Shown here: piece by piece, positions 6,675 through 64,000 of the stretch
How the letters are laid out: every line of letters starts with the position of its first letter
Numbering within the stretch: position 1 is the first letter of the stretch
Assembly (NCBI GenBank): GCA_050633305.1
Contig: JBOEGF010000013.1
Location: forward strand, 224,001 to 288,000
DNA: 64,000 nt
From: Nannocystales bacterium
GTDB lineage: Bacteria > Myxococcota_A > Polyangia > Nannocystales > Nannocystaceae
Direction: 5' to 3'
The notes under the pieces: model-generated
The model's database searches: none
Told to the model about the DNA's origin: nothing
Seen by the model: only the letters and a program-made list of their open reading frames with translations
Position numbers and translations under genes: made by a program

Positions 6675-6766
6675 GGGCGAGTTGCTTCGTAGCCCGGAGC
6701 GCGGCCCCCCGCCCCGCACAGTTTGCGCTCGAAGGTCGGGCACCAGAGCCCCCAGAAGCCACGGGG

Positions 6767-9700
6767 TCAGCGGCCGGTCTTGCGGCGTCTCGTGACCGGC
6801 CGCGCCGCGAGCTGAACCGTCTTGTCTCCGTCGTCGGTCTCGACCACGACCGTGTAGCTCTGACCCGCTTGGACCCAAGTGCTGCTCAGGCTCACCGCCA
6901 ACGCACTCGCTCCAGCCTCTTCGGTGGTCTCCCCGTCCACCGCCAAGACCCGCTGCCCTGCTCGAAGACCCTGCTCGGCTGCGGGGCCCGATGCTTCGAC
7001 CATCGAGATCCATAGCTCGAGGGGACGCTCAGGCGCGCCCACGGCCATGGGCTTCCCGCCGTCCGCAGGTGGCGGCTCGAAGCCCGCCACCACCCGCATC
7101 CCCAAGCTACCGCGCTCGTCTTCAGGGATCGGCGCCCCTCCGCGTATCACGACGTCGCCGAGATCGACCTCGGCCCCCGACTCGACAAAGACAACCGACT
7201 CCGCACGGACCGTCCCCGAAGCGAGCAGGCCTGCCCCGCCGAAGCGGATCCGGCCTCGGCCTTCGCCCAGACCCTCGATACGAAAGCGGCCATCCGCATT
7301 CGTGTTCGTCGTCTCACCGGCCAGCTGCCGATTGAGCCGCGCGTTGCGGCCGCGTTCTCCGCCTCGCATCGACCAGCTCATCGAGACGTTGGCAGCGGGG
7401 TCGCCTTCGGGCGTGACAGCCCGCCCGGTGACCGTCCCCCATTCGCCCAGCGCCACTTCGATGCCGTCCATCGAGGCTTGGACGTCCACGAGGACCGTCG
7501 CGCATCCTTCCTGCGCGTTGACCACCAGGACCGCCTGACCGTTGGGCAGTCCCGAGACCTCGAAGCGGCCCTCGTCGCTGAGGAAACGCCTCCGCATGCC
7601 TCCGATGGTGAGCTCGAATCGAGGCAGAGGTTCCCCGTCCAGGCTCACGGTACCCGCAATGCGCCCGAGTTCCTCGACCTCCAGCTCGACGTCGTCACCG
7701 ACGGAGACGCCGGTCGCCTCACCCCGCGCATTGCCACGTTCGGTGTCCGCGGCAACCGTATAGACACCATCGGCCAGACCTGCGAACGAGAAGTGCCCTT
7801 CTGCATCGGTGACCGTCCGTGGAGTGCTCCGCAGAGGGGTTGACCGATTCTCGCTCCACAGCGTGACCCATGCGTCTTCAAGCGGGCCATCCACACCCTT
7901 GACCACGCCCTCGATGGATCCCTGCGGCGCCGAGACGTGCAGCTCAACATCGTCGATGTCTTCGTCGGAGACATCCAGCGCAAGACCCGGGTCGTCCTCG
8001 GGCTCCCCCGTCCGAACCCAGAGGCCGCCGTGGCGGTCCTCGACCGCCAGCCGATAAGTGCCGGGGTTGACACCCACCACCTCAAACCTGCCGGACGCAT
8101 CTGTAACGGCCTTCTGCACGTTCCCGCGGGCGAGCCGGGTCGCAATGGCCTCGCTCGAACCCTGGTCTTCGGTGAGTCGCAGTGTCAATCCGGCGGCGGA
8201 GACGTCCCCCGCGTCGACTCGGCCCCGAATCACGGGGCGCGGCTCCATGCGGAGCTCGAAGCCGTCGATCCCCGAATCAGACACTGAGATGTCCGCCTCG
8301 CCGAGGCTTCCATCCGTACCTTCTGCGGAGAGCTTCCAGTCACCGACCGGTACCGAAGAGATGGAGAACAGCCCTTCTGCGTCGCTGCGGACGTGAGCGT
8401 GGCTGATCATGTTGCCCTTCAACATGACCTCGAGTCCGCCTTGCTCCTTGCGCAGCCTGACGCGCACATCGGCGGCCTGTGGCGGCTCGATCCGTCCAGA
8501 CACGACGGCCCCACGCTCGACGGCAACTTCGACGCCCTCGACATCTGCAGCCTCGACCTCGACCCTCGTTTCAAACGTCGAGGGGATGAATCCGTGCCCA
8601 TCGATCATCAGAGGGTGTTCGCCGGGGCTCACGCCAAGCAGCACGAACGTCCCGTCATCGGCGGTCACCGTGCTCGGGCCGCCTCGTCCGGAGACCTTCA
8701 CCGAGGCGCCGGCGATTCCCACCGAGGTCTGTGCGCGGTCGACGACCCGTCCGTGGACATTAAACGCAGGGTCGAGCGCGACGACCAGTCCATCGAAGTG
8801 CTCAGCGATGCCCAACGTGACCTCGGTGGGCACGCCCGTCGCAAGATGGTCAGCACTCGCGAACAGCCGATACCTGGCGGAAGAGAGCCCTCGAAGCGTG
8901 AACCGCCCGTCGGGTCCCGACACGACCCTCTCCTCTTTCCGGGCGCTTCGACTGCTTCGAGACTTCCCCCGTCGAACCTCCTCAGCGAAGGACACGACAG
9001 CACCTGACACGGGCGTGCGACCGTCCTGCCCGACAATCCGGCCCGAGATCGATGACGCGGGGAGCAGCTGAAAGTCGATGGTCTGCGCCGATCCGCGCAC
9101 GATGATGTGTTGCTCGGTGCGCTCATAGTCCTCATCCCATGCGAGGAGCCCGTACCCTCCCTTCGGCACCCTCAGGGCGAAGCGTCCCTCCGCGTCGGAC
9201 ATCGCCGCGAAGGTCCGTCCTCCACCTTCTGCGCGGACGACCGCCCCCTCGATCGGGCCTCCGCCGATATCCGCGACCACGCCCGATACCGAACTCCCGC
9301 CACGGGCAAGCAGCACCGTCACGTCGGGCGTCGTCTCTCCGGTCCGGACGAGAAACGACGCACGTTGCGGAGAGTAGTGGCCGGGAGCACTGGCTGCCGC
9401 GAGGTAACGCCCTGGCGACAACCCCTCCACTGTGAAGGTCCCATCCCCGTCGACAGGAACGATCGCCAACGCCGAGCGCCCGCGTTCGCTGGCGAACGCA
9501 GCGCCCCCACTTGGCGTGGTGATCGTCACCACCGCGCCGAGGAGCGGCTCCTTCGTACTCGACTCCAGAGCCACCCCGCGAACACCTCCGAGCCTCGCCA
9601 CGGCAGAACTGGCGGTTGTTCCCCGGTGGGGCACGGCAGGCGAGCCATCGTCGGCGGGCAAAAGCCCCGAACTCGAGTCTGCTTCGGCGCCACCTCTGGC

Positions 9701-49667: not shown

Positions 49668-51113
49668 ATGCCTACGCGGGTGTCCGACGTCGCTCCTTCG
49701 GAAACACCTTCCATCTTTCGCCGTGTCGTCGGCTTCGCAACGCCGGTCGCCTTCGGCGTCGTGGCGTTTGTGATGATGCAGCGAGCACGAGAGGAGCCGC
49801 CACGGCGCCCGCCTTCGGAGCAGGGCAAGGCCGTCCGAACCGCCGGGGTGATCGAGGCTGAGGCCATCCCTCGCGCGGTTGGCTATGGCGTGGTCCGCTC
49901 CTCCCGAGAATGGAGCCTTGTGGCCGAGGTGTCCGGTCGTGTTGTCGAGCTCAATGACAAGCTCGAGGACGGCCGCATCATTCGCGAAGGGGAGCGACTC
50001 ATCAAGATCGATCCGGCAGGCTTCGAGCTGAGCGCTTCGCAGCAAAAGGCCACGGTCAGCAATGTAAAGGCACAACTCAGCGAACTCGCCGTTCGGGAGA
50101 AGAACACCAAGGCCAGTCTCGCGATCGCCAAGCGGTCTCTCGAGCTGTCGGAGAAGGAGCTCGCGAGGGTCAAGAAGCTCGAGAGCAGCGGCACAGCTTC
50201 GTCTTCGGAAGTCGATTCGGCCGAAGTCTCGGTGCTCACGCAACGTCAGTCGGTCCAGTCGTACAAGTCGACGCTCGCTCAGATCCCGGCCCAGCGCCGC
50301 GCCTACAAAGCCCAGATCTCGCAGTACGAAGCCGGGGTGAAGACAGCCGAGCTCGACGTCGCACGGACCGAGATCTTCGCGCCATTCGATGTCCGCATCC
50401 GCTCCGCGGACGTCGAGCTCAGCGAGCTGGTCACCGTGGGCGCCAAACTTGCCGAAGGAGACGGCATCGCGCTTGCCGAGGTCCCTGCCCAGTTCTCGAT
50501 CGGCTCACTGATGCCCCTCATCGCGCCGCCCAAGGATGTGGACGAGCCTCCCGCAGCAGCCGAGGACACACCCGAGACACCTTCGGATGAGGCGCTCTCT
50601 GCCCGTGCCCTCGCCCGTCGGTCGGCGCAGGCCGGACTCAAGGCCACCGTCACGTTGGAGAGCGGGGCCGTGGTGACGAGCTGGGAGGCGGCGTTCGACC
50701 GCTTTGCCAATGTCGAGAGCGCCACCCGAACCGTCTCGGTCGTGGTCGCTGTCGATGACCCCTTCGGCAAGGCGTCCCGCGGCCGACGGCCACCGCTGGT
50801 CTCGGGAATGTACGTGGAGGTCGAACTCGAGGGCTTACCCCGCCCCGGCTGTCTCGCGGTGCCCCGCGGCGCGCTGCGGTCAGACACGCTGCACGTTGTC
50901 GATGCCCAACAACGGCTCGCCATTCGCCCCGTCGAGGTCGCCTTCGTCCAGGAGACCTACGCCTGTATCGACAGCGGCGTCAAAGCCGGTGACCAAGTCG
51001 TGCTCACGGATGTGGTCCCCGCAATCGAAGGAACCCTCCTCGAGCCGCGGGTGGATGAGCGCGCTGTGGCCCAACTGGCCGAGGCCGTCGACGGAGAGGC
51101 CCAAGCCCAATGA
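49668..51113 (+). CDS. RND efflux periplasmic adaptor (MFP)
   Basis: N-terminal TM, EVSGRVV lipoyl half, coiled coil, APFD, GMYVEV, AVPR.AL. Confidence 0.93.
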   Translation: MPTRVSDVAPSETPSIFRRVVGFATPVAFGVVAFVMMQRAREEPPRRPPSEQGKAVRTAGVIEAEAIPRAVGYGVVRSSREWSLVAEVSGRVVELNDKLEDGRIIREGERLIKIDPAGFELSASQQKATVSNVKAQLSELAVREKNTKASLAIAKRSLELSEKELARVKKLESSGTASSSEVDSAEVSVLTQRQSVQSYKSTLAQIPAQRRAYKAQISQYEAGVKTAELDVARTEIFAPFDVRIRSADVELSELVTVGAKLAEGDGIALAEVPAQFSIGSLMPLIAPPKDVDEPPAAAEDTPETPSDEALSARALARRSAQAGLKATVTLESGAVVTSWEAAFDRFANVESATRTVSVVVAVDDPFGKASRGRRPPLVSGMYVEVELEGLPRPGCLAVPRGALRSDTLHVVDAQQRLAIRPVEVAFVQETYACIDSGVKAGDQVVLTDVVPAIEGTLLEPRVDERAVAQLAEAVDGEAQAQ

Positions 51114-54100
51114 TCGGCTACCTCGCTCGGCACCCGACCGCCGCCAACCTCCTGATGATCACCCTGCTCCTGCTCGGTGTTCTAGGGCTCACCTCACTCA
51201 AACGAGAGACCTTTCCCGAGTTCACCCCCTCGGTGGTCACCATCACCGTCGCCTACCCCGGCGCGTCCGCCGAGGATGTCGACGAGGCCATCGTGGCGCG
51301 GGTCGAAGACGCGGTCGACGGCATCGAGTACCTCGACCGAATGACCTCCAAGGCCCGCCAAGGTGTGGGCGTGGTGACGCTGGAGATGGAAGACGGCGGA
51401 GCGCTGGACGCGTTCAAGTCCGACATCGACAGCGCTGTCGATGCGATCAACGACTTCCCCAACGAAGCCGAGGACCCCGTGGTCGCCGAGGTAACCGGCA
51501 TGAGCGCGGTCGCCTCGATCGCGGTCCGTGGCCCGATGAGCGTCCCCGACCTCGAGCGCTACTGCGAAGAACTCAAGGACGAACTCCAACGCTACGAAGA
51601 GGTCTCGCAGATCGAGATCGCCGGGTTCTCCACGCCGCAGCTTCAGGTACGGGTCAAGCAATCGGTTGCTTCGTCCTACGGACTGAGCGTCGGCGATCTC
51701 GCTGACCTCATCGCCGCGCAGAGCCTTGACCTCCCGGTCGGCTCGCTCGAGACGCGGGGCGGAGAGATCCTGGTGCGGTTCGCGGAACAGCGACGAAGCA
51801 TCGAGGAGTTCGCCCGACTTCCGGTGGTGGGCAGCGCACTCGGAGGCGAGGTGCCCCTGGGAGACCTCGCAGACATCGAGTACACGTTCGAGGACGCCGA
51901 GGAGCAGACCCTGTTCAACGGCAAGCGTGCCGGCCTTCTGCGGGTGAGCAAGACGTCCAGCCAGGACGCACTCGAGATCTTCTCCGCGATGGAGGAGTTC
52001 GTGGAGCTCAAGTCCGCGACGGCCCCACCGGGCGTCGAGCTTGTCATCACCGACGATGCCGCGACCCCCATCGAGCAGCGACTCGAGCTGCTGACGAACA
52101 ACGGCTTTCAGGGGTTGGTGCTCGTCTTCGTCACCCTGTGGCTGTTCTTCAACACCCGCCTGGCCCTGTGGGTGGCCGCCGGCCTGCCCGTGTCGTTCAT
52201 GGGCGGCCTGTGGATCATGTCGCTGATCGGCTACACGCTGAACATGATGACCATGATGGCCCTGCTGCTCGCACTGGGGCTGTTGATGGACGACGGCATC
52301 GTGTTGGCCGACAACATCGCGGCGCACCTGCGGCGCGGCAAGAGCTCCTATCGGGCCGCAATCGACGGCGTCACCGAGGTCTGGCCGGGCATCGTGTCGT
52401 CATTCCTGACGACGGTCTGCGTCTTCACGCCGCTGTCCATGCTCGATGGGCAGATCGGCCGGGTCCTTCTTGTGATTCCCGTCGTACTCATCGCCGTCCT
52501 CAGCATCAGCCTGATCGAGGCCTTCGGCATCCTGCCCAACCACATCGCGCACTCGTTGCATGGCCGCGACATCGACAAACGCTCTCGCGCGCGAGCGTGG
52601 TTCGACAGTGGCTTCGAGCGCTTCCGGGAACAAATCGTGGGCCGTGCGTCGGACTGGGCGATCCACCACCGCTACATCACCGTCGGATCTGCGATCGCGT
52701 TCTTCGTCATCTCGATCGGGCTCATGGCGGGCGGCATCCTCAAGTTCGAAGGGTTCCCCGATACCGATGGTGACACCGCCGAGTTCCGGCTCCGGATGCC
52801 CGCCGGAACCCCTCTGGAGGTCACCCAGGCTGAAGTGGCGCGGGTCGTCTCGGGGCTCCAGCAGATCGACGCCGAGTTGACGCCGCAGCAACCCGAGGCC
52901 GCACCGCTCATCGAGAACATCGTCGTTCGGATGAACTACAACCCCGACTCGCCGGACTCGGGGCCACACATCGCGACGGTCAAGGCGGATCTTCTCAGTG
53001 TCGAGGTCCGCAGCACCACCCTCGACCAGCTCAAGACCGCCTGGCGCGAAACCGTGGGGCCGCTGTCCGACGCCACGTCCGCCAGCTTTGCCAGCGCCGC
53101 GATGGGCCCGGGCGGAGCCGCGATCGAGTTGCGGGTTCAGGGCAGCGACCTCGACCGCATGTCGGAAGCCGCGGTGGAGATCGAACGCTGGCTCGGCGGG
53201 TTCGAAGGCGTGTTCGACCTCGGAACCGACCTTCAACCCGGGACCCCGCAGGTGCGGGTGCGCCTGCGCTCGGGTGCCTTGGGCAGCTCCGCGCAGTCCG
53301 TACAAGTCGCGCAGCAGCTCCGCTCCGCGTTCTCCGGCGACCGAGCCCAAGACGTCCGCATCGGCGCGCAGGACTACGAGGTCACGGTTCAGCTGGCAGA
53401 TTCGGGTCGCGACACGCTCTCGGACCTCGAGTATTTCGAGCTCCAGCTGGGGGGCGAGCGCGTCCCCCTGGGCACCGTCGCCGACGTCTCCGCGGACAAC
53501 ACATTTGCCGCGATCGCCCGCGTCAACGGCACGCGCACCGTCACGCTGACCGGTGACATCGATGCAGAGGTCGCGAACTCGGCCGAACTCATGCAGCGCT
53601 TCAACAACGAGCTGTTGCCTGAACTCGCACAGAAGTACCCCGGGCTCCGGTTCGAGGTCGGAGGCAGCACCGAGGAGTCTGGGAAGACCGCCCAATCCAT
53701 GCTCACCGCGTTCGGCATCGGGCTGTTTGGGGTCTTCTTTCTGTTGAGTTTCCAGTTCCGATCCTACGTCGAACCACTGGTCGTCATGCTCGCCATCCCG
53801 CTCGCACTGACCGGCGTCATGTGGGGCAACCTGTTCATGGGAGACCCGCTCACCCTGCCGGGCATCCTCGGGTTCATCTCCCTGGCCGGCGTCGTGGTCA
53901 ACGACTCCATCTTGCTGATGGTCTTCATCAAGGCCGGGCTTCGCGAGGGGCTCGATCCCACGGCCGCGGCACAAGGAGCCTCTCGGAGCCGCTTTCGGGC
54001 GATCCTGCTGACCTCGGCCACCACGGTCGCAGGACTGGTGCCCCTGATGTTCGAGCGAAGCCAGCAGGCGCAAACACTCATCCCGGTGGCCACCAGCATC

Positions 54101-54232
54101 GTGTTCGGGATGCTCGCTTCGACCGTGCTTCTGCTGCTCGTCTTGCCCGCGATGTACGCAATGCTGGGAGACTTCGGTCTCACCGCCAAGCCTGGCGCAA
54201 CCGTAGGCGGCGCCGACGATGAGGAGTCTTGA
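51110..54232 (+). CDS. RND efflux permease (AcrB/AcrD/AcrF family)
   Basis: YPGASAEDV, GLLMDDGIV, GVVVNDSI, RFRAILLTS.TT..GL.PL. Confidence 0.97.
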   Translation: MIGYLARHPTAANLLMITLLLLGVLGLTSLKRETFPEFTPSVVTITVAYPGASAEDVDEAIVARVEDAVDGIEYLDRMTSKARQGVGVVTLEMEDGGALDAFKSDIDSAVDAINDFPNEAEDPVVAEVTGMSAVASIAVRGPMSVPDLERYCEELKDELQRYEEVSQIEIAGFSTPQLQVRVKQSVASSYGLSVGDLADLIAAQSLDLPVGSLETRGGEILVRFAEQRRSIEEFARLPVVGSALGGEVPLGDLADIEYTFEDAEEQTLFNGKRAGLLRVSKTSSQDALEIFSAMEEFVELKSATAPPGVELVITDDAATPIEQRLELLTNNGFQGLVLVFVTLWLFFNTRLALWVAAGLPVSFMGGLWIMSLIGYTLNMMTMMALLLALGLLMDDGIVLADNIAAHLRRGKSSYRAAIDGVTEVWPGIVSSFLTTVCVFTPLSMLDGQIGRVLLVIPVVLIAVLSISLIEAFGILPNHIAHSLHGRDIDKRSRARAWFDSGFERFREQIVGRASDWAIHHRYITVGSAIAFFVISIGLMAGGILKFEGFPDTDGDTAEFRLRMPAGTPLEVTQAEVARVVSGLQQIDAELTPQQPEAAPLIENIVVRMNYNPDSPDSGPHIATVKADLLSVEVRSTTLDQLKTAWRETVGPLSDATSASFASAAMGPGGAAIELRVQGSDLDRMSEAAVEIERWLGGFEGVFDLGTDLQPGTPQVRVRLRSGALGSSAQSVQVAQQLRSAFSGDRAQDVRIGAQDYEVTVQLADSGRDTLSDLEYFELQLGGERVPLGTVADVSADNTFAAIARVNGTRTVTLTGDIDAEVANSAELMQRFNNELLPELAQKYPGLRFEVGGSTEESGKTAQSMLTAFGIGLFGVFFLLSFQFRSYVEPLVVMLAIPLALTGVMWGNLFMGDPLTLPGILGFISLAGVVVNDSILLMVFIKAGLREGLDPTAAAQGASRSRFRAILLTSATTVAGLVPLMFERSQQAQTLIPVATSIVFGMLASTVLLLLVLPAMYAMLGDFGLTAKPGATVGGADDEES

Positions 54233-55530
54233 TGAGAAGATGGGCGCGCCCCACGAGGCTCGGCCTAGCGCTGTTGCTCAGCCTCGGGGCGTGCGGGACC
54301 ACTGAGGGCCGAGAGCCGCCCCCGAGCGCGGCAAAACCAGATCCCGCGCCCACTCTCGAAGGCACGTGGCGAGCCACCCTGACCTCTCCAGGCGGCGAGC
54401 TCCCATTCGAGCTCCACGTTCATGACCGGGAGGGAACGCTGCAGGCTACGGCGCACAACGGCACCGAGACCGTAGAGTTCACATCCGTGTCTCTGGGCGG
54501 CGACACGGCCGTCCTTCGCATCGACGGATACGATTCCGAAGTCCGTGCCACGCTCAAGGATGATGGGCAGAGCCTCTGGGGCGTGTGGACAAAGACCACG
54601 CCCGATGGTCCGTCTTCGATGCCATTCGCAGCCACCCGCGGGGCGCAACCTCGCTTCTCCAGCGAAACTCCCGCACCGAGCTACGACGTCCCAAAATCGG
54701 TCGACGGCGAGTGGTCCGTCCGCTTCCGCGAAGAGGACGACAGCACCTTCGTAGGCCATGCGATCCTCACGTCGAGCGACGGAGCACTACATGGGACCAT
54801 CCTGACCGATACGGGTGACTACCGGTACCTCGAGGGACGCTACGCAAACGGTACCGTGGAGCTCTCGTGCTTTGACGGGGGGCATGCGTTCTTGTTTCGA
54901 GCGACGGTTGCCGAGGATGGATCGCTCGAAGGCAACTTCTGGTCCCGCGCGAGCTACCACGCGACGTGGACCGCAACACCGATGAGTCCGGGTCAGGCCA
55001 GCCCGCTCGCGGACCCCTTCACCGCGGTCACCCTGTCGTCTCGAGAGACCGAGGGCCGATTCCGCTTCGCGTTCCCGGACAGCTCAGGCGCCACCGTGAC
55101 CGACGAGGACCCTCGTTTTCGCGACAAGGTGGTCCTCATCGACATCTTCGGAACCTGGTGCCCCAACTGCAACGATTACGCGCCGGTCCTCGCCCGCTGG
55201 CATGACACCTATGGCCCCCGTGGACTCGAGATCGTCGGCCTCGCCTTCGAGTTCACCGGGGACGTCAAGCGCGACCGAGCCCAGCTTGCGACCTACGCCC
55301 AAACCCACGGCATCACCTTCCCCCTACTGCTCGCCGGTACCAGCGACAAAGGAGACGCAGCCGAGCTGCTGCCCTCGATCGACGAAGTGAAATCGTATCC
55401 GACCACCATCCTGGTCGGACGGGACGGCCGCGTGCACAAGATCCACAGCGGCTTCGCCGGACCGGCGACAGGGAAACACCACGAGCGACTCCTCAACACA
55501 CTCCAGACGGAGATCGAGTCCCTGCTGTAG
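54229..55530 (+). CDS. TlpA/redoxin-family lipoprotein
   Basis: LGAC lipobox; GTWCPNC, YPTT..VGRDG.V..IHSGF.GP. Confidence 0.92.
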   Translation: MMRRWARPTRLGLALLLSLGACGTTEGREPPPSAAKPDPAPTLEGTWRATLTSPGGELPFELHVHDREGTLQATAHNGTETVEFTSVSLGGDTAVLRIDGYDSEVRATLKDDGQSLWGVWTKTTPDGPSSMPFAATRGAQPRFSSETPAPSYDVPKSVDGEWSVRFREEDDSTFVGHAILTSSDGALHGTILTDTGDYRYLEGRYANGTVELSCFDGGHAFLFRATVAEDGSLEGNFWSRASYHATWTATPMSPGQASPLADPFTAVTLSSRETEGRFRFAFPDSSGATVTDEDPRFRDKVVLIDIFGTWCPNCNDYAPVLARWHDTYGPRGLEIVGLAFEFTGDVKRDRAQLATYAQTHGITFPLLLAGTSDKGDAAELLPSIDEVKSYPTTILVGRDGRVHKIHSGFAGPATGKHHERLLNTLQTEIESLL

Positions 55531-55787
55531 CCGGACACCGCGGCGCAAGGACAACGCCAGGGACCGAGACTCACCCCCCACTGCCACGTTGGTAACCACG
55601 AGCAATAAGCGCGCAAAGAATCATCCGCGGAGCCCCAACACGGTTTCAGCCCCCAACTGCAACAGAACCAAGTTCTCCCCCGGTCTGGCGGCTGTCGCCC
55701 CGATTCTGCTGCGCTGAGTTTCGATGGCAGCCCGAACCTCGGGCAGCGCCTCAGTTGCCCCCGCGCCGCTCGGCCGGCTACGTTTCA

Positions 55788-56216
55788 CGACACCCGATGT
55801 CATCAACGGTGAAACTCGCCGGCGTCGATGCCGAACGACTCGAGCTCCACTTGTGCACGCTCGAGCTCGCGGCCCCAACGCCCAACGTTCTTGCTTCTCG
55901 GGTCGTTGGAATGGGTTCGGTGGAGATGGTTGAGAACGTCATCGCGTTTGGGGACTCACTGATCGCGAAGTCTGGATCGATCCAGATCTTTCACGACTTC
56001 TCAGAGGTGTCGGGCTACCGAGCCGAAGCGCGGCGGGTCCTTGTCGACTGGGGCGTGCGAAACCCCGACGCGATCGAGTGCACCCACGTGCTGTTCCGCT
56101 CCAAGATCGTGGCGATGGGCGTGTCGATGGCAACACGGCTGTTGGGCGAACAACTGACGGGCTACTCCAAGTACCCGGAGTTCGACGCGGCGCGTGCCGC
56201 CGCCGCCCGTCGCTGA
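55788..56216 (+). CDS. STAS/SEC14-like hypothetical protein (start uncertain)
   Basis: FHDFSEVSGY..EAR..LVDW, HVLFRSKIVAMGV. Confidence 0.6.
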   Translation, partial: RHPMSSTVKLAGVDAERLELHLCTLELAAPTPNVLASRVVGMGSVEMVENVIAFGDSLIAKSGSIQIFHDFSEVSGYRAEARRVLVDWGVRNPDAIECTHVLFRSKIVAMGVSMATRLLGEQLTGYSKYPEFDAARAAAARR

Positions 56217-56276
56217 ACCGACCGTACGGAGGCCATCCGACCGCGCTCGGCCCCCCAAAATGACGGCCCGCGCCTC

Positions 56277-57350
56277 GTGTTAGCTTGCGCCGACGTGCGC
56301 GAAGCTGCCGCAATCCTTCTGCTCGTGAGCGCCGCTTGCGGGTCTTCTCCGTCGCAGACGGCCGACTCGACCAGCACCGGGGACGACCCGTCCACGGGCA
56401 CGGCGCTGGACGTCACATCCTCGACGATGTCCCTGCCTCATTCGTCGACCTCGAACTCGACGAGTGAGGATGGCTCGAGTGGATCGTCCGGCATCGGGCA
56501 GCCCGATCTACCGGACCCTGATCCGGATCCTCCGCAGGCGTCCGAGTACTGCGAGTCCATCGTCGACAGCTTCTGCGACTTCTACGCTCGATGCGGGCGG
56601 ATGGACGTGGCGTCGGCAGAGCTTTGCCACGAGCCCTTCTTGGAGTCGTGCAACACCGTCTTCGAACCGCAGTATGTGGGGCTCGAGGCTGCGGGCTTGC
56701 TGACGTTGAGCGCCGAAGGACTGCTGGCATGCGAAGAGCACCTGGCGGACGTCGCCTGCGAGGAACAGATCTTCGAGCTCACGGGGCCCTGCAGCAACCT
56801 GTGGTCTGGCACCCAAACCGCAGGCGAGGGCTGCGGGCTCGATGTCGAGTACTACGTCTGCGATCCCTCGGCAGCGTGCACGATCGGCTTGGACTTCTGC
56901 GGCACGTGCGAAACGTTGCTCGAGCCGGGCGACGATTGCACCCCCGACGGAACGACCTGTGGCCCCGATGCGTTCTGCGATGTAGACGCGTGCCGGGCTC
57001 GCGTCCCCAACGGTGGTCGCTGCACCCCCGACGACCGCTGCTTGGCAGGGTCAGCCTGTACTGACGGAACTTGCCAAGGACCGACATTCGTCGGCCTCGG
57101 TGACACCTGCGACATCACGCGGCGCTGCCCGTACCTCACCGCGTGTGTCGCTGGCGTGTGCACGTCGACGCCCCGGCTGGGAGACGCCTGCTCGCCGGAC
57201 ATCCCCTGTGAGGTCGGGTTCTGCGACGGCGATTCGTGCCAGGCTCCGCGCGACAACGGCGAAATGTGTGGTGGAAACCCAGAGTGCAGCTCGGGCATGT
57301 GTGTCGAAAACGTGTGCGAACCACGACCCTCGGGCTGCATTGCAAACTGA
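56277..57350 (+). CDS. Cys-rich repeat lipoprotein
   Basis: SAAC lipobox; many G..C....C.....C..G.C repeats. Confidence 0.85.
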   Translation: MLACADVREAAAILLLVSAACGSSPSQTADSTSTGDDPSTGTALDVTSSTMSLPHSSTSNSTSEDGSSGSSGIGQPDLPDPDPDPPQASEYCESIVDSFCDFYARCGRMDVASAELCHEPFLESCNTVFEPQYVGLEAAGLLTLSAEGLLACEEHLADVACEEQIFELTGPCSNLWSGTQTAGEGCGLDVEYYVCDPSAACTIGLDFCGTCETLLEPGDDCTPDGTTCGPDAFCDVDACRARVPNGGRCTPDDRCLAGSACTDGTCQGPTFVGLGDTCDITRRCPYLTACVAGVCTSTPRLGDACSPDIPCEVGFCDGDSCQAPRDNGEMCGGNPECSSGMCVENVCEPRPSGCIAN

Positions 57351-57478
57351 GCCCACGCCCGGCACGTCTGTATGCTGCACGCGATGCGCAGGCGTAGGGT
57401 CGTCGGACCTCGATGAGAGCCCGCTGAAGGAGCTCCGCTAGAACCGTGGTCGAAGAAGCAAGAACCGCTGGCCAACCC

Positions 57479-58072
57479 ATGCGAGTCGCGATCGTCACCC
57501 TGGAAGCGTTCAACGAGCTGGACAGCTTCGTCGCCTCCGCGCTCCTGAATCGAGCGCCGGAGGTCCGGGCGTCGATCTGCTGCCCGAGCGACACGGTGAC
57601 CTCGATGAACGGCGTGAGCATCACTGCCCAAGCACCGCTCGAGTCGGCGGCAGAGGCAGACGCAGTCCTGATCGGGAGCGGACGGAGGACCCTAGACTAC
57701 CTGGAGGACCGCTCGTTCCTGGCGCGGTTGCGGCTCGACCCCACCCGCCAGCTGATCGGTGCGCAGTGCTCAGGCGTGCTGCTGCTTCACCGCCTCGGCC
57801 TCCTCGGAGACACCGCAGCTTCCGACTCCGTGACCACTCCCCGGCTTCAGGAGCGCGGAGTTCACGTCATCCAAGCCCCCCTCCACGTCGAGGGAAACGT
57901 CGCCACCGCGGGAGGATGCCTCGCCTCGCAATACCTCGCCAGCTGGATGCTCGCCCGTATGTGCGGGTGGCCCGAAGCCGCACGCGTGGTCCACGAGGTC
58001 GCTCCGGTCGGCCAAAAGGACGACTACGTCCGGCGCACGGCGGAGGTCGTTACCCCGGCCCTGAGGGCCTGA
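57479..58072 (+). CDS. DJ-1/PfpI family protein
   Basis: FNELDS, ADAVLIGSG, IGAQCSG, GNVATAGGCLASQYL. Confidence 0.93.
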   Translation: MRVAIVTLEAFNELDSFVASALLNRAPEVRASICCPSDTVTSMNGVSITAQAPLESAAEADAVLIGSGRRTLDYLEDRSFLARLRLDPTRQLIGAQCSGVLLLHRLGLLGDTAASDSVTTPRLQERGVHVIQAPLHVEGNVATAGGCLASQYLASWMLARMCGWPEAARVVHEVAPVGQKDDYVRRTAEVVTPALRA

Positions 58073-58216
58073 GGGCGCACGAAGGGGGCCACAGCAGCAA
58101 CTCTCCCACGTTCCAAGCCGCGACCACGTGGCTCTTCGTTGCCGCGGCGGTGGGACTGCTCATCGCGCTTGTCTTGTCGGCCCTCAGTTAGACACACAAC
58201 ACGCGATGCTCGAGCA

Positions 58217-60301
58217 TCAATCGGAACGCTTCCCGCGGGGCGTACGAGAGCCGCCCGCCTCTGCCCCGCGGTACTGCTGATACCAAGGCATGTTGCGAAT
58301 TTCCGCCAAGTAGGCCTGGTACTGGGTTTCGTAGGCTTCTTTGCCGCGCGTGTCGTTGAACAACAGCCGGGTGCCTCGGTAAGCCCGTGCGATGTCGACG
58401 ACCGCGATCACCAACAGCTGAGGGATCCCCGAACGCAACCCGAGCCACGCTCCGCTCGTCATCCACGACTCGTCGCCAAGAGCCAAGACCACCGCGTTGA
58501 GTACGACACAGGCCGCTGTCGAGAACGCGATGTGCTGGTAAACGCTCGTCATCTCACCGAAGGAGAGCGTGTCATAGAGCAGCGCGTTGACCAGCTTGCG
58601 AACGACCGGGATCACCAGGACCAGCGCCAATCCCACGAGCGATAGCCAGCCCAGGGCGAGGCCGAGCAACAAGAAGTTGACGGCGAACAAGGGGACCCAT
58701 GCCATCTTGGCGATCAGGCCGGGCGCGAACATGTTGGTCCAGCGCCGGCAGTACTCCAGATACTTGTCGTTCTCGTCGTTGAGTTCGGGATACCGCGCGG
58801 GAATTCCCGGTCCCGTGAGGTATGCCGAGAACTCCCCGGCCAAGAGCGAAGACCACATCGTGCGGGGCTTGCCCAACGCGTGACTGATCTCCTCGTTGGT
58901 CATTCCCGTGAACTGGGTGTGCTCGAGCCCCTCGTACTCCTGCCCGGACTCCAAGTAGTTGTACTTCCACGACGCCATCCGGGCGTCGAACTCGCGAACG
59001 AACTTCGTGTGAAACGAGCCGTCATCGATGAGGCGATGGATGAACTCGCACTGGATCTCCGACGTGCCCGCAAACGCCCCGGTGGTAGGCCGCTCGACGC
59101 CTACGAAGTAGACGTTGGGTCGCTTCGCGTTCCACAGCCCGTAGAGGCAGTCGGTGTAGTTGTATGTCCAGGCCTCTCCGTTGGAGCCCAGGATCTCGAC
59201 CGGCGCCGGACGTGCAATGCCAGCCTTGATCCGTCGGTCGACCTTGACCGGCTCGCCGTCGATCTCGCACACATCGTCTCGAACCCAGTCCACCCGCTTG
59301 GGGTGCACCACCCTCAAGTCTCCCCGCTTCATGAAGAAGTACGGGTCGTTGAGGAGCATGCGGTGCGAGAGCATCTGCTCCCGATACTCGCCGTCGAAGT
59401 GTGCGAAGAACGAGTCGATGGACCAGTATTTGACGGGTAGCCCGAAGCCCGCGTTGACCCCGGTCCGAAGCAAGTAGCTACGCCACGCCGAAGGGAGGTC
59501 CTTTCGGTAGAAGTCCTCCGGAGTCATGAGTTCATCCAGACCGGACTTCTTGCGGAACAGCCGAGAGAGCCAAGTGTCACCGTAGGGCGAGACGGCGGTA
59601 CACAGAGCGCTGCGGTACGAACGCTCGTGGTTGTACTTGGCCAGGTACTGGTACGGCTCGAACATGTCCAAAGGCGCCCACGCCTTGGATTGCCCCTCCA
59701 TGTAGAACACCTTGTCGAGGTTCTGGAAGTGCTCGGTGCAGAAGATGACCTTGTTGCCACCGAGCATCAGTCGCGACATGTACATGTTGCTGGTGTCGCC
59801 GTAGCCGTCGATGACCACCGTCTTGTTCTGGAGGTGGAGCGTCTCCTGCAGCGTTTCACAGATGCCGGGGCCATCCACGGTCTGCGCCGCCGTGACCACC
59901 AGATGACGGCAGCGCACAGAACCCGAGGTTTCCCCCTCCAAACCCACGTCGAACGACCCGTCCGCCCGCTCTTGGTACTTGACCGCCCGCGACCGCACCG
60001 TCCGAGCGCGGATCTCGGAGCAGACATCGGCCTGCAGCCGCTTGTAGTAGTCGGTCGCCGTGAAGAAGTGAAAATCGAGGTCGAAGTCCCACCAGGAAAA
60101 GCCCGCAACCGCGTTGGAAGACAGGAGGTCAAAGTCGTCTTCGTGTTCCGCCAAACGACTCCACACCCCGAAGTCACGCTCCGAGATCACGACGAACGAC
60201 TTCTTCGAGCGCACGAGCAGCCGCAGCAGCGCCAGCGAGGACACGCCCAAGCCCACGACGCAGACGTCGACGGTTTTTCCCGTCCAGTCGTGGTCGTTCA
60301 C
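58217..60301 (-). CDS. AetF-like single-component flavin-dependent halogenase with an internal multi-TM insertion
   Basis: Collinear motifs versus recalled AetF: VCVVGLGVSS/VCIIGFGFSA; VWSRL..FDLLSS/VWDRL..FSLVSS; NKTVVIDGYGDTSN/NKTFVFDTMGDSAN; VKYWSID/IKYWPID; LLND; NVYFVGVERPTTG..SEIQ..FIH/NIYFLGYTRPFTG..TEMQ..FIH; FNDTRGKEAY/FNDMRHKEGY; GTGA overlap with the upstream stop. Confidence 0.85.
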   Translation of the reverse strand: MNDHDWTGKTVDVCVVGLGVSSLALLRLLVRSKKSFVVISERDFGVWSRLAEHEDDFDLLSSNAVAGFSWWDFDLDFHFFTATDYYKRLQADVCSEIRARTVRSRAVKYQERADGSFDVGLEGETSGSVRCRHLVVTAAQTVDGPGICETLQETLHLQNKTVVIDGYGDTSNMYMSRLMLGGNKVIFCTEHFQNLDKVFYMEGQSKAWAPLDMFEPYQYLAKYNHERSYRSALCTAVSPYGDTWLSRLFRKKSGLDELMTPEDFYRKDLPSAWRSYLLRTGVNAGFGLPVKYWSIDSFFAHFDGEYREQMLSHRMLLNDPYFFMKRGDLRVVHPKRVDWVRDDVCEIDGEPVKVDRRIKAGIARPAPVEILGSNGEAWTYNYTDCLYGLWNAKRPNVYFVGVERPTTGAFAGTSEIQCEFIHRLIDDGSFHTKFVREFDARMASWKYNYLESGQEYEGLEHTQFTGMTNEEISHALGKPRTMWSSLLAGEFSAYLTGPGIPARYPELNDENDKYLEYCRRWTNMFAPGLIAKMAWVPLFAVNFLLLGLALGWLSLVGLALVLVIPVVRKLVNALLYDTLSFGEMTSVYQHIAFSTAACVVLNAVVLALGDESWMTSGAWLGLRSGIPQLLVIAVVDIARAYRGTRLLFNDTRGKEAYETQYQAYLAEIRNMPWYQQYRGAEAGGSRTPRGKRSD

Positions 60302-61860
60302 TGTGCCGCCCCCTCCTGGGGCTGGGTAGGCTTCGCCCGCATCCACTCCGCCAACCGACGAACGTAGTCGGTATTGCCACGCCAGTCGTTGTCGAGATCG
60401 TCAGGCAGGAAGAAGCGGTCGACGAGTTCCCCGGACTTGTAGTGTCGGATGATCGGGTGGATGTAGAAGTCCTCAGCCACCCCCACGCCGCGAGGCATCG
60501 CGAACGGGTCCATGTACTCGTCGGACTTCCCGTACTCCAACGTCAGCATGTACAGCTCGGATTCCTCGGACAGCAGCCTTTCGGTGACGTAGTCCACTGG
60601 AACATCACGCAGCAGCTGGAACGCCCCGGGGATGTCTTCGGCTGCTGGTACCACGACATCGGCGAGGAAGCCCGGCTGCAACATCAAGGCGGCCGATGTA
60701 CTCATCCGCTCGATGAGCGCGGAGGCCAGCCCCTCTTCGAGGGCGGACGGCAGGCGCTCGCGCTCGACCCAGGGCCCCTTTCCGTCGCGGCGGCTCACAA
60801 TGGAGACCAGGGACTCGATGTTGTGTCGGAACCCGTGGATGAACGCGGACATCGTCTTCCGATAGTCGCGGGACTGCATCAGCGTCCCGATGAAGAACAT
60901 GTTGGGGACGTTCACCGACTCCCAGTCGCAGGTCATCAGCGGCAGCCGCCCGCACTCTCGGCGCAGTGGTGCGCACGACACATCGAAGATGCCCAGGTCG
61001 GAACAGAAGCCCGTGCACAGCAACACCCGGTCGCAGGGGTACGAGAGCAGCTGCTTCCGAGACTCGAACCAGACGTCGACGACCAACTCCCCATCGACCT
61101 TGCGGACCGCCCGAAGTTCACCGTCGAGGATGTTGTTCTGCGCCTTGAGCTGGTAGGTGTCCAAGAAGTTGTTGTTGACCGCCCGCAGGTGCCCCACGAA
61201 GTGGCTTGCCCAGGCGAGTTTCACGGTGCTGCGCCCGCACACCCAGATCTTGCGCGTGGTCTCGATCAGGGCATCCGCGGTTTCGAACGCGGAGTTCCCC
61301 TTGCCCGCGATGAACACCCGTTGGTCGACGAAGTCGTTGGGGTCGACGGAGAACTCGTCGTAGTTCTCGCAGAGTTCCGCCCCCTCGATGTCGGGTCGAT
61401 GGGCGTTGGGAATGCCCGTTGCGACGAACAGCCGCTCGCACGTGAATACGCGGCCATCCTCCAGAACGACCGAGAACTCGCCTTGCGCCTTGGCGACCTT
61501 GGTGACGGCGCAACCGTAGGAGATCACCAGCTTGTAATGTGCTGCGAACGCCTCGAGGTAGGCCACCAAGGACGAAGCCGTGGGGAAGTAGTCCTTGGAG
61601 AACTCCCGGAACTGCAGTGCTTCGTCGTCGCAGACCAGAGCGTTCCAGTCGTAGCGGCGCCGTGACTCGAGGTCCGGGTACCCGGTGTGGACTTTGTTGA
61701 TCGACAGCAGCCGGTCGTGCCGTGGGTAGCTGTGGAAGAAGGTCCCCGCACTCTCACCGCGCTCCAGCACGAGGTATTCCTCGCCAGACTTGGCGAGCAG
61801 GTGGGCGAGCTGCAGCCCCGCAGGACCGGCGCCGATGATCAGATTGCGAACGTGTGTCAT
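60298..61860 (-). CDS. FOXRED2-like FAD/NAD(P)H oxidoreductase, paralog B
   Basis: IIGAGPAGLQL, YPRH..LLSINK, DWN, GKGNSAFETA, GHLRAVNN.FLDTYQLK, SAFIHGFR. Confidence 0.9.
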   Translation of the reverse strand: MTHVRNLIIGAGPAGLQLAHLLAKSGEEYLVLERGESAGTFFHSYPRHDRLLSINKVHTGYPDLESRRRYDWNALVCDDEALQFREFSKDYFPTASSLVAYLEAFAAHYKLVISYGCAVTKVAKAQGEFSVVLEDGRVFTCERLFVATGIPNAHRPDIEGAELCENYDEFSVDPNDFVDQRVFIAGKGNSAFETADALIETTRKIWVCGRSTVKLAWASHFVGHLRAVNNNFLDTYQLKAQNNILDGELRAVRKVDGELVVDVWFESRKQLLSYPCDRVLLCTGFCSDLGIFDVSCAPLRRECGRLPLMTCDWESVNVPNMFFIGTLMQSRDYRKTMSAFIHGFRHNIESLVSIVSRRDGKGPWVERERLPSALEEGLASALIERMSTSAALMLQPGFLADVVVPAAEDIPGAFQLLRDVPVDYVTERLLSEESELYMLTLEYGKSDEYMDPFAMPRGVGVAEDFYIHPIIRHYKSGELVDRFFLPDDLDNDWRGNTDYVRRLAEWMRAKPTQPQEGAAQ

Positions 61861-63515
61861 TTGCCCATCCCCTGGCTGGCATCGACCAGCCGCATGTCTT
61901 TGTCACGGACGATCAACCGCCGTACGGGGTCCGCCTTCGCCTCCAACGTGTCTCCCCGCATCGAACGCTCGAAATACTCCGCGCACGGTCCGAGATACTC
62001 GCGACCACTCCAGTCGGCGAGAAAGTCCTCGAGCACGTGAAACTCCGACCGCCGCGCGCCGTCCGTGCCAGAGCGCATCTCGACGACGGGGTGGATGTTG
62101 GTACTCGACGCACCGTCGTAGACGTTGGTGCTCCGGTCGTAGTCGTGGGGGTTCGGCGGGTTGTCGCCGAGTCGGAACATCAGAATGTAGAAGTCCCGCC
62201 CCTCGCTGATCTTCGCGCCATGCTCCACCAGGTAGTCGTAGGGATGGGAGAAGATGTACCGCGCGGTGCCCCCGGGCTCTTTGGGAAGCACGATCATGTC
62301 CGCGAGGAAGCCGACCTGCTGCCAAAGCGAGGACACGCGGTTCATCCGGGCGAGGAATGCTTCTGCGAGCGCGCCTCCTGTGGGCTCGACCTCGATCGAG
62401 GGTAGCGGGTCTTGGTGGTAGCGCTCCGCCAGGAGTCCGGCGAGTGACTCGGTGTTGTAGCGGAACCCATGGATGAATGCGGACTGAGCCCGCTTGTGGT
62501 CGAGGAACTGGGTCACCGTCCCCGCGAAGAAGAGACCCGGGACGTTGCTCGACTCGAAGCCAGTGCTCATCGTGGGCAGGCGTCCGCACTCGGAGAGCTC
62601 GGGCAAGCAGGTCTCGTCGAAGATCGACCGGTCGAAGCGAAAGCCGGTACAGCGCAACACCGCGTCGTACTCGATCTGCTCGACTTCGTTGGCTGCGTGA
62701 ATCGAGGAGAAGCTGACACGGATCTTCCCCGTATCGGTGCGCTCCATCCCCTGGACGTTGCCGTCGATGATCCCGTTCTGAGACTTGAGGTGGTACGTGT
62801 CGAGAAAGTTGTTGTTGACCGCCCGCAGGTGCCCCACGAACCGTGAGTCCCACGCGAGGGTGACCGGGTGCGGGCTGAGCATGTGGATGACGGCGGCCGT
62901 GGGAATGAGGTTGTCGGCGGTTTCGAAGGCCGAGTTTCCCTTGCCCAGGATGAGCACGTTCTTGTTGTGGAACTCCGCCGGGTCGACGGACATCGTCTCG
63001 TAGCCCTCGGCGAGTTCGATGCCAGGAACGTCCGGGATCACCGGGGTTCCGACACCCGTCGCAACAACGAGACACCGAGCCCGGTATCGCTGCCCGCCCT
63101 CGCATTCGGCTTCGAAAGACCCCTGGCCATCTTCGCGACGCACCGAGGTCACTCGGCGCTCGAGGTGGACCTGAAGCTCGTTCGCCCGGACGAATCGCGC
63201 AAGGTAGTCGACCAAGACGTCGGCCGAGGGAAAGTACTCTTGGGTCAGCTCCGTCATGCGCCCCGACGCGTCCTCGCTGATCAGCGAGTTCCAGTCGTGG
63301 CGGAGGTTGAATTCCGGGTCGTCCCGGCCCGTTGCCGACTTGTTGATCGACAACAGCGTCCGGTGTCGTGGATACCGTGAGAAGAACGCTCCCACGTGGT
63401 CGGCCCCGTCCAGGACTACGTAGCGACGCCCTGCGCGTTGAAGGAAGTACGCGAGCTGCAGCCCGGCAGGTCCCGCTCCAAGGATGAGGTAGTCGGTTTC
63501 GAACGTCGTCGCCAT
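61857..63515 (-). CDS. FOXRED2-like FAD/NAD(P)H oxidoreductase, paralog A
   Basis: ILGAGPAGLQL, YPRHRTLLSINK..TG...EFNLRHDWNSL, GKGNSAFETA, LKSQNG, SAFIHGFRY. Confidence 0.92.
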   Translation of the reverse strand: MATTFETDYLILGAGPAGLQLAYFLQRAGRRYVVLDGADHVGAFFSRYPRHRTLLSINKSATGRDDPEFNLRHDWNSLISEDASGRMTELTQEYFPSADVLVDYLARFVRANELQVHLERRVTSVRREDGQGSFEAECEGGQRYRARCLVVATGVGTPVIPDVPGIELAEGYETMSVDPAEFHNKNVLILGKGNSAFETADNLIPTAAVIHMLSPHPVTLAWDSRFVGHLRAVNNNFLDTYHLKSQNGIIDGNVQGMERTDTGKIRVSFSSIHAANEVEQIEYDAVLRCTGFRFDRSIFDETCLPELSECGRLPTMSTGFESSNVPGLFFAGTVTQFLDHKRAQSAFIHGFRYNTESLAGLLAERYHQDPLPSIEVEPTGGALAEAFLARMNRVSSLWQQVGFLADMIVLPKEPGGTARYIFSHPYDYLVEHGAKISEGRDFYILMFRLGDNPPNPHDYDRSTNVYDGASSTNIHPVVEMRSGTDGARRSEFHVLEDFLADWSGREYLGPCAEYFERSMRGDTLEAKADPVRRLIVRDKDMRLVDASQGMGK

Positions 63516-63540
63516 GGTGTCTGTGCCTCGTTGGTCGGAC

Positions 63541-64000
63541 CTACTCCGACAGGAAATGTGTCCCGCTCTCCAGCGCCGCGTGGGTCCGCGAGAGCATCTC
63601 GTCGCAGAAGCTCTCGGTTCGGTCGAAGATGCCGTGGACGAGTGCTTCTGCTCGAGGGCGCATCGACTCGGGCAGGACGCAGGAGCGAATGTCCTCAACC
63701 TCGCTGCCGATCGCATGACCGGTCTCTCGCTCGAGGTGGTGCTGTGAGAAGTAGACCAGTCGCTCTCGCTGCGGATGCGAGCTGGCAGCACGGGCGGTCG
63801 CAGAAAGCCACACGTTGCCTTGGGCTTCGAGCGCTTCGATGATCACCAAGCGAAGCTCGGCGCTCGCATCTCGGGCGGCCGCGATGACGTAGTGCCCCAG
63901 CTCGCGCGCATGCTTGCCCTCGTCGCTCCACAGGAACCGAAGAACATCCGTAAACCGGCATTCTCGGTCGAATCCTAGGACTTTGAGGTCGTGGAGGAAC
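63541..64000 (-). CDS. AetD-like heme-oxygenase-like diiron oxidase (HDO); 5' part outside the window
   Basis: Manual translation FLHDLKVLGFDRECRFTDVLRFLWSDEGKHARELGH...IIEALEAQG...YFSQHHLERETGHAIG versus recalled AetD FLNDLELLGFDKTMRFSEALRFVWSDDLLHTRRLCH...VIEAMETAG...HVEVETGHAVG. Confidence 0.85.
   Translation of the reverse strand, partial: FLHDLKVLGFDRECRFTDVLRFLWSDEGKHARELGHYVIAAARDASAELRLVIIEALEAQGNVWLSATARAASSHPQRERLVYFSQHHLERETGHAIGSEVEDIRSCVLPESMRPRAEALVHGIFDRTESFCDEMLSRTHAALESGTHFLSE

Follow-up and report, generated by a model that had tools for sequence, protein, structure and literature searches.

Four genes at the edge of the window

The DNA analysed here is a stretch of 64,000 nucleotides from a Nannocystales bacterium (GenBank assembly GCA_050633305.1, contig JBOEGF010000013.1; G000:C13:224001-288000), hereafter the window. 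On its minus strand, at 58217-64245, lie four co-directional genes that encode an AetD-family heme-oxygenase-like diiron oxidase (HDO), two FOXRED2-like flavoproteins and a homologue of the AetF-family flavin-dependent halogenases, as read from the open reading frame (ORF) listing and the gene junctions. AetD and AetF each founded an enzyme family, in both cases a small one of recent discovery. Taken together, sequence comparison, predicted structures and analogy with characterised pathways make it probable that these genes form a self-contained biosynthetic cassette, which would convert tryptophan (Trp) to a small halogenated, further oxidised indole. Positions beyond 64000 are window-equivalent and were read in a 20-kb region across the window edge (locus L003; L003 position = window position minus 58000). 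The features are as follows.

63541..64000, minus strand: AetD-family HDO, part inside the window (3' 152 codons plus stop)
63541-64245, window-equivalent (L003 5541-6245), minus strand: AetD-family HDO, whole gene (234 aa; 245 nt past the window edge)
63516..63540, minus strand: spacer between HDO and flavoprotein 1 (25 nt, with a GAGG ribosome-binding motif inside; sequence read)
61857..63515, minus strand: FOXRED2-like FAD/NAD(P)H flavoprotein 1 (552 aa; Pfam Pyr_redox_3, E 3.4e-43)
60298..61860, minus strand: FOXRED2-like flavoprotein 2, paralogue of flavoprotein 1 (520 aa; Pfam Pyr_redox_3, E 3.3e-41)
58217..60301, minus strand: AetF-family single-component flavin-dependent halogenase homologue (694 aa; phmmer to AetF, E 1.1e-34)
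58204..58219, minus strand: weak terminator-like hairpin, starting at the stop codon of the AetF-like gene (consensus scan and sequence read)

The junction reads agree with the tight spacing that the first-pass annotation had described, i.e., a 25-bp gap followed by two 4-bp overlaps. The HDO gene stops at TAG (63543-63541) and flavoprotein 1 starts with the ATG at 63515; the two flavoprotein genes overlap by ATGA (61860-61857), and flavoprotein 2 and the AetF-like gene by GTGA (60301-60298), with GGAGG 10 nt upstream. G+C content by codon position was of the coding type in all four frames (GC3 of 0.74-0.86 and GC2 of 0.41-0.43), and identical 4-nt overlaps are present in the orthologous loci L004-L007. 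The HDO gene starts with a TTG at 64245, just preceded by GGGAGA, and orthologous HDOs begin at the same aligned residue. The suggestion that the operon continues past the window edge was therefore right for the HDO gene, by 245 nt, and wrong for the operon: reading the contig upstream, we found a 236-nt spacer and then a divergent plus-strand ORF. Its G+C content by codon position (0.70/0.49/0.76) looks better than that of the co-directional alternative (0.77/0.44/0.70). Because this upstream ORF is divergent, the cluster consists of four genes and ends at the HDO. At the other end, the hairpin call at 58204..58219 is weak, since the terminator consensus scan gave 8 sites against 4.3 expected.

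Conservation and distribution of the cassette

A scan for the HDO pattern with one genome per species recovered 42 HDO loci, and 4/42 carried flavoproteins: L004 (an uncultured bacterium), L005 (a Nannocystaceae metagenome-assembled genome, MAG), L006 (a Polyangia MAG) and L007 (a Polyangiaceae MAG). A scan of metagenomes, with 13 HDO loci, provided two complete cassettes (L061 and L062) and a third (L064) that is cut by a contig end and has one flavoprotein visible. All four genes occur together in six loci (the window, L004, L005, L006, L061 and L062). The gene order of the window recurs in L004 and L006, L005 has the order HDO, flavoprotein 2, AetF-like gene, flavoprotein 1, and L007 consists of the HDO and both flavoproteins without a halogenase. 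Whole-genome searches placed an AetF-like gene in 4/5 cassette genomes. Similarity between the window and L004-L007 by tblastx stops at the cassette borders, and the flanking genes are not conserved.

The cassette HDOs also appear to belong together by descent. In a quick maximum-likelihood tree of 119 rows (midpoint-rooted for drawing only), they form one clade (SH-aLRT 96), within which the halogenase-bearing ones make up a subclade (SH-aLRT 99); this tree omits five identical copies, high-scoring segment pairs shorter than 170 aa, the loci L001, L002, L046 and L054-L059, and AetD and SktA themselves. The other 38 of the 42 loci, from cyanobacteria, Enterobacterales, Acinetobacter, Lysobacter, Rhizobium and actinomycetes, had no full-length homologue of the three flavoenzymes, with one weak partial match at L040 (27% identity over 222 aa), and no recurrent partner was found among 98 ORFs Pfam-scanned from 18 of these 38 loci. 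The names of the nearest relatives point to the Myxococcota, in line with the first-pass reading of a myxobacterium. Within the phylum of the source organism, 7/401 genomes (the source genome included) had any HDO match, and all but its own were only 31-36% identical. In one cyanobacterial order, the HDO family was present in 62/401 genomes, the AetF family in 5/401 and both in 0/401, a sample that evidently holds no genome with the aetokthonotoxin (aet) cluster. A search of sequencing runs found one microbial-mat metagenome DNA run with 0.46 of the words, and listed no RNA run. The cassette is thus conserved as a unit, with occurrences so far limited to two metagenome contigs and a small number of genomes of the Myxococcota type.

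Gene 1, an AetD-family diiron oxidase

Compared with the PDB by phmmer, the HDO fragment inside the window matched AetD at an E-value of 1.9e-21, and the whole protein had the AetD chains 8ji2, 8zvg and 8twn as its sole relatives (E 2.5e-41 over residues 1-214 of 234; 76 identities in 214 aligned columns, counted by hand from the phmmer alignment). Pfam and NCBIfam gave no match for this protein, and its family identity came from the PDB comparison alone.

The residues expected of an AetD-like active site are all in place. D76, H79, E140, H170, E174 and H177 align with the AetD iron ligands D76, H79, E140, H172, E176 and H179, Y165 aligns with Y167, and F44 and F48 align with their namesakes; all nine are invariant in 19/19 HDO family members, and the iron ligands are kept in every row of a wider site table as well. 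In AetD, Fe1 is held by H79, H172 and E176 and Fe2 by D76, E140, E176 and H179 (PMC11611611, PMC10654658), the carboxylate of the substrate is hydrogen-bonded by Y167, and F48, on auxiliary helix 2, places a hydrophobic residue where a Glu would otherwise stand, leaving Fe1 open to substrate (PMC11611611). The claim that an AetD-like HDO with its key motifs lies here was thus borne out, and gene 1 can be assigned by its sequence to the AetD family of diiron oxidases, its predicted 3-His/3-carboxylate site being complete and of the substrate-chelating type.

The surrounding pocket has a character of its own. In AetD, the indole is clamped by F44 and I146, and S214 contacts the C7 bromine (PMC11611611, PMC10654658), although a brominated substrate is not required (PMC10654658). 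In the cassette HDOs, position 146 is an invariant Trp, position 142 is Gln, Leu or Met (mostly Thr in relatives), and position 210, the counterpart of AetD 214, is Thr or Met, vs Phe in most relatives. The second-sphere residues of the window HDO (L139, Q142, W146 and T210) match neither AetD nor SktA, the skatole synthase of the skt pathway (T139, T142 and F214 as given in a 2026 review, PMC13108848). Residue 210 is Thr in the tabulated halogenase-bearing cassettes (the window and L004-L006; L061 and L062 lie outside this table) and Met in the halogenase-free L007. As a lead from sequence, this Thr/Met contrast would fit a halogenated HDO substrate, that is, halogenation before the HDO step.

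Gene 4, an AetF-family halogenase homologue

AetF was the only strong PDB match of the gene 4 product by phmmer (E 1.1e-34), with the next matches at about 1e-3, and Pfam and NCBIfam again gave no match. We built an AetF-family profile from 15 sequences, ten proteins of the window type and five cyanobacterial homologues, which matched AetF at an E-value of 2e-192. Searched against 1.84 billion representatives, it retrieved 180 proteins at E<=1e-3, of which 67 reached E<=1e-30. The AlphaFold2 model (mean pLDDT 80, pTM 0.82) had AetF as its best Foldseek match (E 1e-24, TM-scores of 0.61/0.66), followed by DiatB (1e-11) and then by ancestral flavin-containing monooxygenases (FMOs).

Both catalytic residues considered are retained, in agreement with the earlier reading of an AetF-like halogenase with intact motifs. 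K291 lies in a KYW motif, corresponds to AetF K258 and is invariant in 15/15 members of the profile; E215 corresponds to AetF E200 and is Glu in 14/15 and Asp in one, and the phmmer alignment gives the same column for each. K258 of AetF is essential for halogenation, and FMOs in general lack this Lys (PMC10306068). The dinucleotide-binding motifs GLGVSS (at 17) and GYGDTS (at 166) fall in the columns of GFGFSA and TMGDSA of AetF.

The window-type proteins are further marked by a hydrophobic C-terminal insert of about 110 aa (approximately 527-640) that is unalignable to AetF and is found in none of the five cyanobacterial homologues. AlphaFold2 modelled it as long helices (523-550, 553-562, 565-585, 587-608 and 626-643), and the 19-residue Kyte-Doolittle maximum of the protein is 2.54, vs 1.05-1.53 in the other three cassette proteins. 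By sequence and predicted structure, gene 4 is best described as an AetF-family FAD/NADPH halogenase homologue in which the catalytic Lys and Glu are kept and the substrate site appears remodelled.

Related proteins were also seen elsewhere. Insert-bearing AetF-like proteins occur in a eukaryote transcriptome record (P0039, 47% identity) and in a Chloroflexota MAG (P0040, 44%), which means either that this type also exists outside Myxococcota-type genomes or that the eukaryote record comes from contamination. The genome of L004 has a second, distant AetF-like gene away from its cassette (G002:C5:22799-24592, 27% identity, E 7.5e-32).

Genes 2 and 3, two FOXRED2-like flavoproteins

The two flavoproteins are 40-42% identical to each other and both match Pfam Pyr_redox_3; the cofactor motifs of flavoprotein 1 (GAGPAG at 13 and GKGNSA at 191) are both kept in flavoprotein 2. 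In the ESM Atlas, the model of flavoprotein 1 was nearest to bacterial proteins of about 520-560 aa (TM 0.90-0.92) and matched vertebrate FOXRED2 clusters at a TM-score of 0.90-0.91 over residues 1-552, with predicted models on both sides of the comparison. The whole-length likeness (predicted-model TM 0.91) upholds the naming of these genes in the first-pass annotation, and the label "FOXRED2-like" is supported at the level of predicted structure. We know of no catalytic function assigned to the FOXRED2 family.

Matches to solved structures are shorter. For our own model of flavoprotein 1 (pTM 0.73), the Foldseek matches in the PDB span only about 370-390 alignment columns and comprise the type II FMO SMFMO (4A9W), YpdA/Bdr and thioredoxin reductase (TrxR)-type ferredoxin-NADP reductases (FNRs); TM-scores were 0.70-0.76 for type II FMO/YpdA vs 0.41-0.45 for FNRs. 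A motif search found no CxxC pair in the flavoproteins, and Pfam gave no PF04820 or PF00743 match in the cassette. Aligned by hhalign, the flavoprotein family and the AetF family share only the first ~200 columns. The idea that the flavoproteins are Bmp5-like halogenases was dropped, as no evidence supported it. By analogy, they may serve as monooxygenases.

Partners of AetD-family oxidases in cyanobacteria

Flavoproteins of this kind are not restricted to the cassette. A full-length FOXRED2-like homologue (41-45% identity) lies directly beside the HDO in 5/60 cyanobacterial HDO loci (L091, L101, L104, L106 and L116). In three of them (L091 3949-7663, L101 5536-9608 and L116 5272-8540) the pair is joined by an S-adenosylmethionine methyltransferase, which in L091 and L116 also matches the TPMT family, and no halogenase was seen. 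In L104 (4987-8530), and with the same layout in L106, which come from related cyanobacterial genomes, two tandem HDO paralogues stand beside one FOXRED2-like flavoprotein. A further locus, L107 (Calothrix-type, G407:C4:110291-124962), has at 4284-8919 a Trp dimethylallyltransferase, an HDO, a PF00743 FMO and a short-chain dehydrogenase/reductase, all in one direction, which by sequence would be a candidate pathway from prenylated tryptophan.

AetD-family HDOs thus recur between a Trp-modifying enzyme and a flavin oxidoreductase of varying family, and it is from this recurrence that we assign roles to the cassette genes.

Comparison with known systems

The closest precedent in enzyme families is the aet cluster of Aetokthonos hydrillicola, where the same two families stand side by side, AetF as a Trp 5,7-dibrominase and AetD as a nitrile synthase. 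The likeness extends to the six iron ligands and to Y167, F44 and F48 on the HDO side, to K258 and E200 on the halogenase side, and to a small polar residue at AetD position 214 (Ser in AetD, Thr in the window), vs Phe in most relatives. The cassette differs from aet in phylum, in the addition of two FOXRED2-like flavoproteins, in W146 for I146, and in a halogenase with a ~110-aa hydrophobic insert and Tyr and Leu for D516 and S523. As the first-pass annotation had noted for the window, counterparts of AetA (second halogenase), AetB (P450) and AetE (tryptophanase) are missing: no second halogenase, P450 or tryptophanase was found among the flank ORFs scanned with Pfam (11 upstream and 9 downstream).

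In logic, the nearest characterised analogue is the skt pathway of Nostoc punctiforme NIES-2108, which has the same three-part composition of an HDO (SktA, a skatole synthase), a halogenase (SktB) and a flavin monooxygenase (SktC) (PMC11869266). Its partners are of other kinds: SktB is described as similar to canonical Trp halogenases and not homologous to AetF (PMC11869266), and the start of sktC, as printed in the supplement to the same paper, resembles by eye the N-terminus of the PF00743 FMO of L107, and is not FOXRED2-like. The SktA residues T139, T142 and F214 stand against L139, Q142 and T210 in the cassette.

The flavoproteins have relatives of two sorts. Vertebrate FOXRED2, a flavoprotein of the endoplasmic reticulum, and bacterial "NAD(P)-binding domain-containing" proteins of about 500-560 aa are alike over the whole length (predicted TM 0.90-0.92, same Pfam set of Pyr_redox_3 and Pyr_redox_2), whereas the cassette genes are part of a biosynthetic operon. 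Type II FMOs (Stenotrophomonas SMFMO, 4A9W) and YpdA/Bdr have the highest TM-scores against the N-terminal part of flavoprotein 1 and are its best PDB sequence matches, but nothing in them corresponds to the C-terminal ~180 aa.

A literature search (open-access papers and bioRxiv) found no report that joins AetF with myxobacteria, FOXRED2 with a halogenase or indole-3-carbonitrile with myxobacteria, which agrees with the earlier statement that no characterised cluster of this composition is known. The SktA paper reports AetD homologues chiefly from cyanobacteria and "across various genomic contexts", and does not name myxobacteria in the passages of text and supplement examined (PMC11869266); two halogenase-mining papers mention AetF only in passing. 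Overall, we rate the cassette as genuine and conserved, a hitherto undescribed variant within the aet/skt type of pathway and not a new kind of system.

Proposed pathway and alternatives

In the pathway that we propose, the HDO would bind Trp or halo-Trp by chelation through its amino and carboxylate groups and use O2 to cut or rearrange the side chain. What is left would be an indole with a one-carbon substituent, which could be a nitrile (the AetD outcome), a methyl group with cyanide as the second product (the SktA outcome) or something else. On its own reduced flavin, the AetF-like enzyme would generate hypohalous acid, and Lys291 would direct this onto the indole ring. Given its membrane-type insert and the replacement of two Trp-backbone contacts, the substrate of this enzyme may be the lipophilic HDO product and not free Trp. 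The two flavoproteins would then oxygenate the indole, the role proposed for SktC in skt.

Several observations weigh against this pathway or parts of it, and the assignments of activity and product are throughout predictions from sequence and structure comparison. The outcome of the HDO reaction is not readable from sequence, because AetD and SktA share their ligands yet differ in product: SktA, an AetD homologue, yields skatole and cyanide, not a nitrile (PMC11869266). Nitrile and skatole thus cannot be told apart here, and the "nitrile" of the first-pass annotation is not established, the cassette active site (W146, Q/L/M142 and T/M210) differing from both AetD and SktA. In the AetF-like protein, two residues that hold the Trp backbone in AetF are not kept (D516 is Tyr and S523 is Leu), Q500 and K587 fall in unalignable parts (the insert or the protein end), and F372, which blocks C6 in AetF (PMC10306068), is Thr. 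With two backbone contacts replaced and a membrane-type insert present, the enzyme may not act on free Trp, although the lost contacts weaken the term "Trp halogenase" and not the term "halogenase".

The same pocket residues could be read to mean that the pathway starts from Tyr, Phe or His in place of Trp, and that a halogenated phenol or benzyl-type product is made. The invariant W146 in place of the indole-clamping I146 would narrow the HDO pocket, the AetF-like pocket is remodelled at F372, D516 and S523, and Bmp5, a related single-component enzyme, has a phenol as the substrate that it brominates (PMC10306068). Yet F44, F48 and Y165 are kept in the HDO, both characterised family members, AetD and SktA, act on Trp or halo-Trp (PMC11869266), and one relative adjoins a Trp prenyltransferase (L107), so we regard a start from another amino acid as distinctly unlikely.

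Halogenation itself does not seem obligatory for the core of the cassette, because no AetF-like gene was found in L007 or its genome; this genome, a MAG, was searched with the window query, so that absence is not implied. The L007 cassette, which does without the gene, could also be taken to suggest a product that bears no halogen, with the AetF-like protein acting as an ordinary flavin monooxygenase bound to the membrane. AetF belongs structurally among the FMOs (PMC10306068), ancestral mammalian FMOs come directly after DiatB in the fold matches of the model, and the C-terminal hydrophobic helices recall membrane-bound FMOs. Against this stand the halogenation Lys, which FMOs generally lack and which is invariant in 15/15, the Glu kept in 14/15, and the position of AetF as by far the closest solved relative by sequence, profile and fold; a halogen-free product of this origin appears very improbable.

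The oxygenase role of the flavoproteins meets objections as well. The best Foldseek E-values of flavoprotein 1 are to TrxR-type FNRs (5e-20), no solved structure covers the C-terminal third, and the class-B FMO motif FxGxxxHxxx[YFW] is absent from both flavoproteins by regular-expression search. The two proteins might instead be NAD(P)H-dependent reductases that restore the diferric HDO site to the diferrous state. We know of no physiological reductant of HDOs, and in vitro work on these enzymes uses ascorbate. The assays of AetD and SktA needed added reductant (PMC11869266), and it is a flavoprotein that adjoins the HDO most constantly, in 8/8 myxobacterial-type cassettes and 5/60 cyanobacterial loci, which together with the FNR matches and the missing FMO motif would suit a reductase. 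There is, however, no such neighbour at 55/60 cyanobacterial and 38/38 non-myxobacterial HDO loci, the TM-scores favour type II FMO/YpdA over FNRs, and a PF00743 FMO holds the corresponding place in skt and L107; moreover, two diverged paralogues (~40% identity) with motifs intact in both are hard to explain as one reductase. We therefore consider a reductase function unlikely and keep oxygenation of the indole as the proposed role.

The order of the steps is drawn in two directions. The insert and the lost backbone contacts point to halogenation after the HDO step, and Thr/Met210 of the HDO points to halogenation before it, a contrast that rests on one halogenase-free locus and conflicts with the argument from the insert. 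A more daring version, possible but doubtful, is that the aet order is reversed: the HDO would act first and remove the side chain of Trp, a membrane-anchored AetF-type enzyme would halogenate the lipophilic indole product, and the FOXRED2-like pair would be dedicated indole oxygenases. If so, this would be the first catalytic role for the FOXRED2 family and a new substrate class for AetF-type halogenases, and the Myxococcota would yield a new metabolite, a halogenated oxindole or indole nitrile.

Neighbouring genes and other features

The G+C content of the cassette (0.61-0.64) is lower than that of its flanks (0.64-0.67). A terminator-like hairpin with a T-run lies in the leader on the minus strand, at L003 6320-6333 (window-equivalent 64320-64333), about 75 nt upstream of the HDO start. 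It has no Rfam family match; over the cassette and leader Rfam gave one chance-level match (E 0.52), and a promoter scan found none.

On the plus strand at 49668-58072, converging on the cassette, are a HlyD-like and AcrB-type RND efflux pair, a redoxin-domain protein, two family-less ORFs and a DJ-1/PfpI protein, none of which is conserved beside the cassette in other genomes. On the other side, also on the plus strand, six large ORFs (469-770 aa) without a Pfam family form a run at L003 6482-16631 (window-equivalent 64482-74631), followed by a TPR and CHAT-domain protein at L003 16868-19576. Canonical Trp_halogenase (PF04820) genes are present on other contigs of the source genome, at C24:403210-404634 (a strong match, E 9e-133), C18:10508-11602 and C8:37547-38638.

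Implications

The cassette is a second natural pairing of the AetD and AetF families, in another phylum and with a remodelled pocket, a predicted membrane anchor and two new partner flavoproteins. Comparison with AetD and SktA would offer a test of what determines nitrile vs skatole formation in these diiron enzymes. AetF is already in use as a reductase-free halogenation catalyst, and the AetF-like protein offers a new halogenase scaffold that may accept indoles other than amino acids. For the FOXRED2-like proteins, the operon provides a first biochemical context, and the product, if made, would be a previously undescribed myxobacterial metabolite.

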